Below are positions 60,129-61,577 of a stretch of DNA of 64,000 bases, in pieces. The first letter of the stretch is position 1. Each line of letters begins with the position of its first letter. A model generated the notes under the pieces. That model was not told the origin of the DNA, ran no database searches, and saw only the letters and a program-made list of their open reading frames with translations. This DNA is from Escherichia phage NHEP10: sequence record PQ511148.1. One strand, given 5' to 3'. The translations under genes and the position numbers were made by a program.

Positions 60129-60677
60129 TTAACGAGCCCATTTGATGATTTCTGTAATCAAACCATTACGTTCGCTTGCATTAAATCCTATAACTTTGTT
60201 AGCACCATCATGATTAAGTAATTGATATGTTTGGATTTTGTTATGAATTGCAAACTCTTCAAAATGTGAAATGACTGTATTAAAACCGAATGAAGACAAA
60301 GTAATAAGGTCGTCTTCAAAACTTTCAGTCATTTCGTTACGTGTTAAAATAATTGTGAACACATCATGGTTTTGGCAAAGACGAACATAGTCCTGTTCAT
60401 AAACGTCAAGAACCGAGTCCGCATCTTGTCGAATACGTCCATAAACCCAGTTACTAATATATCCACGGTCTAACAGATAAATCTTAGTAGGGTCTAAATA
60501 ATTCAACATCGTTTCGAAACAACCAACTTCATTTCGAGACTTAACATCGAAACGTCCATCAACTGTTCGTTTAGGGAAATCAATCTTTACATATCTTTCA
60601 CTAATTTCCATTATGTCATTAATGAAAGTTGTTTTACCAGCATTATCTGGGCCGTCTACTAAAATAATTTTAGCCAT
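60129..60677 (-). CDS. P-loop kinase-like protein (NMP-kinase fold; thymidylate/deoxynucleoside-kinase-like)
   Basis: 182 aa; Walker A VDGPDNAGKTT and DR-x motif LLDRGYISNWVYG reminiscent of TMPK/dNK DRY/DRH motif; occupies T4 beta-glucosyltransferase slot. Confidence 0.5.
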   Translation of the reverse strand: MAKIILVDGPDNAGKTTFINDIMEISERYVKIDFPKRTVDGRFDVKSRNEVGCFETMLNYLDPTKIYLLDRGYISNWVYGRIRQDADSVLDVYEQDYVRLCQNHDVFTIILTRNEMTESFEDDLITLSSFGFNTVISHFEEFAIHNKIQTYQLLNHDGANKVIGFNASERNGLITEIIKWAR

Positions 60678-61577
60678 TTATTCCTCGATTACGACATCTT
60701 CGTATTTAGGTATATTATACGGTGAAGAAATTAAAGCATTAAAGTAGATGAACTCACCAAGACCTGGATGGAATACTTCTTCAGGATTTTCGAAATATTG
60801 AATCTTCGGACGTCCTTTAAGAATTTGATAGTACTCAGTTTTAGTTGGTTTAAAAATTCGAATCAGCGCTTCTTCAGGATACTTATTTCTGTCGAAGCTA
60901 TTATTTGGATCGGTTATATAAAGCGGTTGACCTAATTGAATTGCACATTCAACCACTTGTTCAAAACGATAGCATGGGTCACTAATTCGAAATGGATGAA
61001 AAATACCATCTAGATGAATAGGAGCCAAATCACCTACAAGACGCTGCATGATGGAAGGACGTATAACTTTCTGCGTTACGATAATCTTATTACCATCTGC
61101 ACCAGCGTTAACCAGCACTTCTTTTTGACGTTCATTCAACACAGTAGTTTGAAGTGAACGATTAACCGACAACATGTCGGTTTTTAAGAATTCGTCAATA
61201 TAAAACCGTGGTTTATTAGGGTCTGCAGTGATATTGAAATTGAATTCTACGACAAAAGTGCCGTCATATCCAGTGATATCTGTGATTAGAAAATCACAAT
61301 CATAATAATCAATTAATGAATCAACCACAAATTCATTTTCAGACCAGAAATATTTACGAGTGTTATACGCGTTATCTTTATACCATAATGGAACAAACTT
61401 AAATTCTGGGAAAAGACGTTCGCATTCTTTAATATCAGATGCATTACGTGGATATGTAATCACATCACCTGGATTAGCACGGTGCAAATGAAGTTGGAAG
61501 TTGCCATCCTTAAGGATAGCATACTGTCCAGTTTCATAAGACCGCATACTCAAGATAGGTACGCGGAAAATAGCCAT
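60678..61577 (-). CDS. hypothetical protein (in bgt slot)
   Basis: 299-aa ORF tightly packed between gene 42 and the kinase-like ORF; contains a D-x-D element (YYDCDFLITD); no resemblance to remembered T4 beta- or alpha-GT. Confidence 0.5.
   Translation of the reverse strand: MAIFRVPILSMRSYETGQYAILKDGNFQLHLHRANPGDVITYPRNASDIKECERLFPEFKFVPLWYKDNAYNTRKYFWSENEFVVDSLIDYYDCDFLITDITGYDGTFVVEFNFNITADPNKPRFYIDEFLKTDMLSVNRSLQTTVLNERQKEVLVNAGADGNKIIVTQKVIRPSIMQRLVGDLAPIHLDGIFHPFRISDPCYRFEQVVECAIQLGQPLYITDPNNSFDRNKYPEEALIRIFKPTKTEYYQILKGRPKIQYFENPEEVFHPGLGEFIYFNALISSPYNIPKYEDVVIEE

Follow-up and report, generated by a model that had tools for sequence, protein, structure and literature searches.

A transferase–kinase gene pair of Escherichia phage NHEP10 as likely part of the RB69 arabinosyl-5-hydroxycytosine cluster

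The locus between uvsX and the synthase gene

In a 64,000-nucleotide stretch of Escherichia phage NHEP10 (sequence record PQ511148.1; this whole stretch is called the window here), two open reading frames (ORFs) occupy the place held in phage T4 by b-gt, the beta-glucosyltransferase (beta-GT) gene. One, of 182 amino acids (aa), runs from 60129 to 60677 on the minus strand. It would code for a P-loop kinase of the thymidylate-kinase fold, ortholog of RB69 gp45. The other, of 299 aa, runs from 60678 to 61577 on the same strand, and its product is modelled as a compact GT-B glycosyltransferase, ortholog of RB69 gp46:47 and predicted to add the sugar next to the base. In RB69 the two are labelled, in both cases as a prediction, 'nucleotide kinase' and 'arabinosyltransferase 1' (Lee et al., PMC13326640 Table 1). 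Both frames begin with ATG. They are flanked on one side by uvsX (58858-60030) and on the other by the gene of a 238-aa thymidylate-synthase homolog (61577 to 62293, minus strand), which an earlier note, made from the sequence of this DNA, had taken for gene 42. The two tightly packed minus-strand ORFs that this note described are there, at the positions it gave; its statement that bgt is alone between uvsX and 42 in T4 left out segA, which lies in the same interval.

The stop codon of the synthase gene and the start codon of the 299-aa gene share one base (TAATG), and the ATG of the 182-aa gene comes directly after the TAA that ends the 299-aa gene: synthase, transferase and kinase genes are translationally coupled. 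A promoter and terminator scan of 59800-64000 was uninformative, promoter-like sites being fewer there than in shuffles.

We consider it likely that both ORFs, with the roles proposed for them below, belong to the arabinosyl-5-hydroxycytosine (ara-5hoC) hypermodification cluster published for RB69-like Mosigvirus. The observation behind the earlier note is thus real and was correctly made, while the cassette, the proposed roles of both ORFs and the chemistry are already in print. A 5-kb stretch around the pair is 97-98% identical at the nucleotide level to about 150 Mosigvirus genomes, among them JK42, ST0, F2 and HY126, and by this measure the window is itself from a Mosigvirus. Protein identities between RB69 gp45-gp50 and their window orthologs are 96-99%. 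The 182-aa product matches RB69 gp45 at 180 of 182 positions; the 299-aa product corresponds to gp47 (176/181 identical) followed by gp46 (116/116). RB69 has two genes here owing to a single additional base, at position 545 of the gene in the reference sequence, which splits the transferase frame into ORF046c and ORF047c (locus L003, 4598-5498, which is NC_004928 24597-25497). This base was attributed to a sequencing error by Lee et al. (PMC13326640), and 340 phage records have the 299-aa frame intact, which is its conserved state. The slot that the earlier note saw filled by a replacement modification cassette in lieu of beta-GT is indeed filled by orthologs of the RB69 arabinosyl-5-hydroxycytosine genes.

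The neighbouring synthase and the modified base

The 238-aa protein is identical at 236 of 238 positions to the HY126 protein of Protein Data Bank (PDB) entries 9iqc and 9ir2, and at 237 of 238 to RB69 gp48; with T4 gp42 it shares 25% identity. The two structures were deposited as thymidylate synthase, in an accession series common with the HY126 glycosyltransferase entry. RB69 gp48 makes 5-hydroxy-dCMP from deoxycytidine monophosphate (dCMP) with O2 and flavin, an activity that was shown experimentally (Lee et al., NAR 2026, PMC13326640). To judge by these identities the 'gene 42' neighbour is a hydroxylase, not a hydroxymethylase, so that the gene 42 of the earlier note becomes the gene of a flavin- and O2-dependent 5-hydroxy-dCMP synthase. 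In a 122-kb metagenomic phage contig (L009) a Flavodoxin_2 gene (4739-5293), of the kind found in FMN-dependent reductases, lies directly upstream of the synthase, transferase and kinase genes, and this neighbour fits the need of the synthase for reduced flavin.

The base supposed to be derivatised, 5-hydroxymethylcytosine (hmC), has to be replaced in the same way by 5-hydroxycytosine (5hoC), both from the identity of the synthase and from published chemistry. In RB69 mono- and di-arabinosylated 5-hydroxycytosine takes the place of all cytosines, and an ether bond joins the sugar directly to C5, as established by nuclear magnetic resonance (NMR) and mass spectrometry (MS) (PMC13326640). The nucleobase of RB69 DNA is given in the literature as beta-D-Araf-(1-3)-alpha-D-Araf-O5-cytosine (Araf, arabinofuranose). 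It had originally been assigned as arabinosyl-hmC (PMC6024577), an assignment since called erroneous (PMC13390438). Arabinosylated 5-hydroxycytosine in virion DNA has been published for RB69, NP, HY126 and Bas46. The non-glucose adduct that had been put forward as an option, arabinose being one of those named, is the one that goes with an RB69-type cluster. RB69 also has a gp1-type kinase, gp159, which converts 5-hydroxy-dCMP to its diphosphate in vitro (PMC13326640).

A compact GT-B glycosyltransferase

The fold of the 299-aa protein was resolved by structure prediction only; sequence searches gave nothing usable. There was no Pfam match at E<=1 and no sequence or profile match in PDB, and in NCBIfam the single match, to citrate-lyase ligase (E 0.12), was weak and unrelated. 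Structure prediction, for which the earlier note had called, yields for this protein a GT-B glycosyltransferase fold, hence a putative sugar transferase, with two Rossmann-like domains and an inter-domain cleft, and for the 182-aa protein a kinase fold. The score of the 299-aa model against 6kih reproduces the value published for RB69 gp46:47. Neither ORF resembles T4 beta-GT, as had been noticed, the best BLASTP E-value being 3.7; homology of the 299-aa protein to beta-GT (GT63) was rejected on this count.

Alignment of 48 homologs shows R197, K246 and H270-P-G272 to be invariant. An EX7E motif is present in the window protein (E267-x7-E275); position 275 is acidic in all 48, and E267 is kept in just one. 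The D-x-D element to which attention had been drawn does exist, as D93-C-D95. Its relevance did not hold up: D93 is found in 13 of the 48 homologs and D95 in 30, and the predicted fold is GT-B, which is metal-independent. A catalytic DxD motif and a GT-A assignment were both rejected for these reasons. The family is uniformly acidic (median isoelectric point, pI, 5.2); as a proxy for DNA binding the pI is weak, since one transferase of the DLP type that acts on DNA is acidic too (pI 5.7).

Which arabinose this enzyme would add can be approached by comparison. A second glycosyltransferase, of 366 aa, has its gene between rIIA.1 and gene 39 (38995 to 40095, minus strand), at a distance of 20 kb from the cluster; it is the ortholog, 98.9% identical, of RB69 gp3, arabinosyltransferase 2. 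The HY126 glycosyltransferase of PDB entry 9iqz has the same length, 366 aa, and from its length and name would belong to the gp3 family. Transferases of this type occur in Mosigvirus and in Acinetobacter phages only, the latter having two copies, a distribution matching di- and tri-arabinosylation. The 299-aa family is present as well in Serratia phages LC53 and X20 and in Thanatos, Klebsiella, Yersinia, Proteus and Dhakavirus phages. Now, the DNA of LC53 is mono-arabinosylated and that of Bas46 di-arabinosylated (bioRxiv 10.64898/2025.12.19.695335). One-arabinose phages carry only the 299-aa type, which supports a base-proximal role, and by this comparative reasoning the 299-aa enzyme is probably the first arabinosyltransferase.

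A kinase of the thymidylate-kinase fold

The Walker A motif and the DR motif that had been noticed in the 182-aa ORF are real: G9-P-D-N-A-G-K15-T16 and D70-R71 are invariant in 23 homologs. The model is that of a thymidylate kinase (TMPK), a nucleoside monophosphate kinase fold with P-loop, DR(Y/H) motif and lid, and its best structural matches are all TMP kinases. In a profile search the P-loop and the FP(K/Q)R motif align to vaccinia TMPK. Aligned by hhalign with E. coli Tmk, the P-loop, FPK (FTRE in Tmk), F54 (F74) and DR (DRH) correspond; the eight residues that follow Tmk F74, including R78, are gapped in this alignment. Tmk R78, four residues after the stacking Phe, is what we take to be the thymine-contacting Arg. 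The score against TIGR00041 is 16.3 bits for a cutoff of 83.25, and there is no match to Pfam Thymidylate_kin (PF02223). The protein is assigned to PHROG 761 ('thymidylate kinase'), and many records annotate it as a deoxythymidine monophosphate (dTMP) kinase.

Absence of catalytic residues had been kept in mind as a way in which the kinase assignment might fail; the P-loop and DR motifs are there, and they are invariant in the homologs. Because this catalytic apparatus is kept even in metagenomic relatives (E 1e-18 to 1e-20 against the window kinase), the 182-aa enzyme is, as far as conservation can tell, almost certainly active. Donor synthesis has been assigned to the homologs of RB69 gp51, gp52:53 and gp55, and to AfhE and AfhF in HY126 (PMC13326640); with donor genes elsewhere in the cluster, it is unlikely that this kinase makes the donor. 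Hence, in the earlier suggestion that the ORF pair combines donor synthesis with transfer, transfer stands, with the predicted GT-B protein of 299 aa, and donor synthesis passes to other genes of the cluster.

Conservation of the synthase, transferase and kinase genes

Neither ORF is a chance frame: to judge by their distribution, both are conserved genes. For the 299-aa protein 138 homologs were counted in the protein collection, and 348 phage records contain it. The 182-aa protein occurs in 343, with the same distribution of hosts (for both, 176 Escherichia and 57 Acinetobacter), and none of these 343 is a Tequatrovirus. Synthase, transferase and kinase genes are contiguous in Thanatos, JS98 and DLP1. 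In JS98 (Dhakavirus; locus L015, 5773-7894) their order is permuted to kinase-synthase-transferase, and the U32 gene and 79-aa ORF described below are both missing, as is an annotated arabinose-5-phosphate isomerase, making this a minimal form of the cluster. Three metagenomic contigs of distant phages, 122-356 kb long, keep the three genes together as well, and on these the transferase gene ends inside the kinase gene. The trio is contiguous in L009; in the other two, L006 and L008, the synthase homolog is upstream, with one to three small ORFs between it and the transferase gene. Since the distribution of the kinase mirrors that of the transferase, and its gene is contiguous with those of synthase and transferase, the kinase appears to be tied to 5-hydroxycytosine chemistry, not to a general supply of deoxythymidine triphosphate (dTTP).

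On the jumbo-sized contigs L006 (7600-9174) and L008 (7818-10115), of 217 and 356 kb, genes for a YAcAr-domain protein and a dCMP deaminase come after the transferase-kinase pair, and the synthase homologs, at 298-346 aa, are longer. Another phage lineage may here have its own variant of the pathway.

The proposed pathway and its alternatives

In the literature, uridine diphosphate (UDP)-Araf is produced from ribulose-5-phosphate via the upstream genes, and later arabinoses are added on DNA. Within this scheme the 238-aa synthase would convert dCMP to 5-hydroxy-dCMP with flavin and O2. The 299-aa enzyme would transfer the first Araf from UDP-Araf to the 5-hydroxyl, probably retaining configuration as GT4-like enzymes do, and the distant gp3-type transferase would add the second sugar. 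The 182-aa kinase would phosphorylate a 5-substituted dCMP, either 5-hydroxy-dCMP or its arabinoside, to a diphosphate which would then enter the deoxynucleoside triphosphate pool. Several facts weigh against this scheme. The first Glu of the EX7E motif of GT4 is present in 1 of 48 homologs. The DLP3 ortholog, gp79, when used alone gave no arabinosylation of 5hoC-DNA with UDP-Araf or UDP-Arap (Arap, arabinopyranose) (PMC13326640), and for the Thanatos ortholog, TH1_063, in vitro synthesis of UDP-xylose out of UTP and xylose-1-phosphate has been reported (PMC12838424). RB69 gp159 already produces 5-hydroxy-dCDP in vitro, so that a TMPK-like kinase is not obviously needed at that step. Finally, the accessible literature contains no enzyme assay of the 299-aa or the 182-aa protein.

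The Thanatos result brings up a rival, improbable in our view, in which the 299-aa protein is a UDP-pentose pyrophosphorylase that makes the donor in place of transferring it. Purified TH1_063, 47.8% identical to the window protein, did produce UDP-xylose, and glycosylated neither DNA nor dCMP, dCTP or cytosine (PMC12838424). These acceptors had no 5-hydroxyl, however, for which reason failure of transfer was to be expected, and carry-over of host GalU-type enzymes may have contributed to the assay. The modelled fold is GT-B, not that of a nucleotidyltransferase, and the cluster has its own bifunctional kinase/UDP-arabinose pyrophosphorylase, RB69 gp52:53 or HY126 AfhE (PMC13326640); these two points make synthesis of UDP-xylose unlikely as the physiological role of a TH1_063-type enzyme. 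Far more improbable still is the cassette as first imagined, acting on hmC made by gene 42, with the 299-aa protein as a DxD transferase or a divergent beta-glucosyltransferase. The position of b-gt beside a thymidylate-synthase homolog, and the first report of RB69 DNA as arabinosyl-hmC (PMC6024577), would speak for it. The neighbour is, however, a 5-hydroxy-dCMP enzyme, the ether link goes straight to C5 by NMR and MS (PMC13326640; PMC13390438 calls hmC erroneous), beta-GT similarity is absent and homologs do not consistently keep the DxD. This reading is refuted by the identities found here together with the published RB69 nucleoside structure. What remains of the earlier interpretation is a replacement cassette with a kinase-fold protein, a sugar transferase and a sugar other than glucose; hmC, the relevance of DxD and donor synthesis by the pair are gone.

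Two further alternatives concern the kinase and the substrate on which it acts. That the 182-aa protein is an ordinary dTMP kinase, boosting dTTP for an AT-rich genome, perhaps while the gp1-type kinase is shifted towards 5-hydroxy-dCMP, we regard as unlikely, if deserving attention. Its structural matches, the name of PHROG 761, and the P-loop, FPK and DR alignments with the E. coli and vaccinia enzymes are what such a kinase would show; the TIGR00041 score of 16 bits against a cutoff of 83, the lack of a Pfam Thymidylate_kin match and the deletion, in the alignment, of the Tmk segment with the thymine-contacting Arg are not. Moreover, it is found only in phages that have the 5hoC transferase, none of them Tequatrovirus, its gene always contiguous with those of synthase and transferase. 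Somewhat more doubtful is an assembly line at the mononucleotide level, from dCMP to 5-hydroxy-dCMP, to Ara-5-hydroxy-dCMP and then to the diphosphate, whereby the first arabinose would enter DNA through the polymerase and later sugars be added on DNA. If true, it would be the first pre-replicative DNA glycosylation. In its favour, the three genes touch or overlap and remain neighbours in very distant phages, the kinase distribution tracks the transferase, and the kinase has no counterpart of the Tmk region with the thymine-O4 Arg. The transferase family is acidic, and the gp1-type kinase, which handles 5-hydroxy-dCMP, leaves the extra kinase jobless (PMC13326640). The DLP3 ortholog is inactive on 5hoC-DNA, and the authors cannot tell mononucleotide from DNA as the substrate of the first arabinosylation (PMC13326640). 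Yet all characterized glycosylation of phage DNA takes place on DNA, in T4 as in the tri-arabinosylation by DLP3 gp76/77, and the synthase with a gp1-type kinase suffices to put 5hoC into DNA, which means that 5-hydroxy-dCTP is a substrate of the polymerase. The permuted gene order of JS98 and the acidic pI (5.7) of a DNA-acting DLP-type transferase take further weight from the argument. A role of the kinase on an arabinosylated mononucleotide is conceivable because gp159 already phosphorylates 5-hydroxy-dCMP, and is thus a live, unproven possibility within the preferred ara-5hoC reading.

Neighbouring genes: a U32 protein, chorismate mutase and a 79-aa ORF

Upstream of the synthase gene lie a 79-aa ORF (62335 to 62574, minus strand), ortholog of RB69 gp49 and member of PHROG 8601 (unknown function), and the gene of a Cys-rich 389-aa protein (62571 to 63740, minus strand), ortholog of RB69 gp50 with 387 of 389 positions identical. 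Then comes the C-terminal part of a homolog of RB69 gp51 (63788 to 64000, minus strand), a putative HAD-like sugar phosphatase similar to AfhF (role per PMC13326640) that is clipped by the window end; residues 59-128 of RB69 gp51 are 100% identical to window 64000-63791 (tblastn). These 70 C-terminal residues are all that the window holds of the genes for UDP-arabinose synthesis, which code for a phosphatase, a bifunctional kinase/pyrophosphorylase and an arabinose-5-phosphate isomerase. The rest would lie past base 64000, and is present in the 97%-identical genomes. Homing endonucleases recur in this neighbourhood. T4 has segA between uvsX and b-gt, and Virsaitis27 a Seg-like gene inside its arabinose cluster; in Thanatos-1 the recombinase gene is apparently halved by a Seg-like GIY-YIG gene. 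The loci concerned are L002 7917-10317 (Thanatos-1, TH1_067 to TH1_070), L005 2852-3490 and L014 3571-4236.

The Cys-rich protein matches Pfam Peptidase_U32 (PF01136) with 42.4 bits for a cutoff of 22.4, and NCBIfam UbiU weakly (E 5e-4). Its phmmer comparison with E. coli RlhA, TrhP, UbiU and UbiV was not significant, family membership being supported by Pfam and multiple alignment only. In the MAFFT alignment C195, C206 and C212 fall on RlhA Cys169/192/196, UbiU Cys169/193 and TrhP Cys170/193/197. The position of RlhA C176 is a Gly in the window protein, which has an extra C343-x4-C-x3-C-x2-C355 cluster; RlhA C169 and C176 are essential, C192 and C196 not being reported so (PMC5727448). RlhA, TrhP and UbiU/V are iron-sulphur, prephenate-dependent and O2-independent U32 hydroxylases, and RlhA makes 5-hydroxycytidine in ribosomal RNA (PMC5727448, PMC6599085, PMC10990095). 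In the RB69 work the U32 gene product is labelled 'sugar or heterocycle reductase', and no U32 gene is listed in the DLP3 cluster (PMC13326640). The U32 protein turned up in 221 phage records, with identities of 80% or more in every one; across hosts whose transferases share only 48% identity, it is at least 82% identical. Among the matches listed, its hosts are all Enterobacterales genera or Shewanella; it is in no listed Acinetobacter phage, though 57 of these carry transferase and kinase. Other U32 loci were seen at L005 3492-5002 and L002 6462-7852.

Of the related phage records, 54 have a true chorismate mutase gene (CM_2, 44.6 bits for a cutoff of 27); LC53, X20, Klebsiella, Yersinia, Proteus and Thanatos-2 phages are among them. 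At every locus inspected the mutase gene lies between those of the U32 protein and the synthase. Mosigviruses, including this window, are without it, and Dhakaviruses without both mutase and U32; the former could rely on host PheA/TyrA for prephenate. The simplest reading of the association between U32 and chorismate mutase is an anaerobic, prephenate-fed route to 5-hydroxycytosine. We propose tentatively, rating it at somewhat short of even chances, that the U32 neighbour is an oxygen-independent, prephenate-dependent cytosine C5 hydroxylase that would serve, in anaerobic hosts, as a backup to the O2-dependent synthase. The searchable literature, to which He et al. 2026 and Mahler et al. 2025 did not belong, held no link between U32 and these phages.

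The 79-aa ORF (76 of 79 positions identical to RB69 gp49; basic, pI 9.3) overlaps the stop of the U32 gene by 4 bases. Its occurrence, 162 phage records in all and always beside the U32 gene, is limited to Mosigvirus, Yersinia TG1-like, Pectobacterium and Serratia 92A1 phages. A degenerate chorismate mutase was considered and rejected: there is neither a CM_2 match nor similarity to the Virsaitis27 enzyme, and TG1 and 92A1 carry both genes, the 79-aa ORF lying there between the U32 gene and the mutase gene. The 79-aa product may act together with the U32 protein.

Significance

Resistance of RB69-like phages to most restriction enzymes and to DNA-targeting CRISPR, and their inability to recombine with T4, are accounted for by the cassette; all of this has been published. 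The association of U32 with chorismate mutase offers a concrete candidate for O2-free synthesis of 5-hydroxycytosine in gut phages. The acceptor of the first transferase and the reason for a second kinase bear on the engineering and sequencing of therapeutic phages, as well as on enzymatic synthesis of glycosylated DNA.

Comparison with known systems

The closest system is the gp45/gp46:47/gp48 cluster of RB69 (PMC13326640), with the same genes in the same order and protein identities of 96-99%; the window ends inside this cluster. Apart from the transferase gene, split by an extra base in the RB69 reference and intact in the window, differences are at the level of strains only. The Afh system of HY126, reportedly the subject of He et al., Nat Chem Biol 2026, is as near, its crystallized synthase being 99% identical to that of the window.

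Thymidylate kinases (vaccinia 2v54, S. aureus 4dwj, E. coli Tmk) have in common with the 182-aa protein the predicted fold, the P-loop, FP(K/Q)R, DR and a lid with a conserved Arg. The 182-aa protein, by contrast, is below curated thresholds, has no segment for the thymine-contacting Arg and is confined to 5-hydroxycytosine phages. The step it would catalyse has an analogue in T4, where the gp1 deoxynucleoside monophosphate kinase phosphorylates the modified dCMP.

Compared with the retaining GT4 enzymes (6kih, a sucrose-phosphate synthase, BshA, PimA, WaaG), the 299-aa protein is some 60-100 residues shorter, matches neither Glycos_transf_1 nor Glyco_trans_4 of Pfam and does not conserve the first Glu of EX7E. 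Its gene sits in the b-gt slot, and with the T4 alpha- and beta-glucosyltransferases it would share the GT-B fold, a UDP-sugar donor and an acceptor hydroxyl at the 5-position of cytosine. It differs from them in being smaller (351 and 400 aa in T4), acidic where they are basic, and devoid of beta-GT sequence similarity. The T4 enzymes place glucose on hmC, whereas for the 299-aa enzyme the predicted acceptor is 5-hydroxycytosine and the predicted sugar arabinofuranose.

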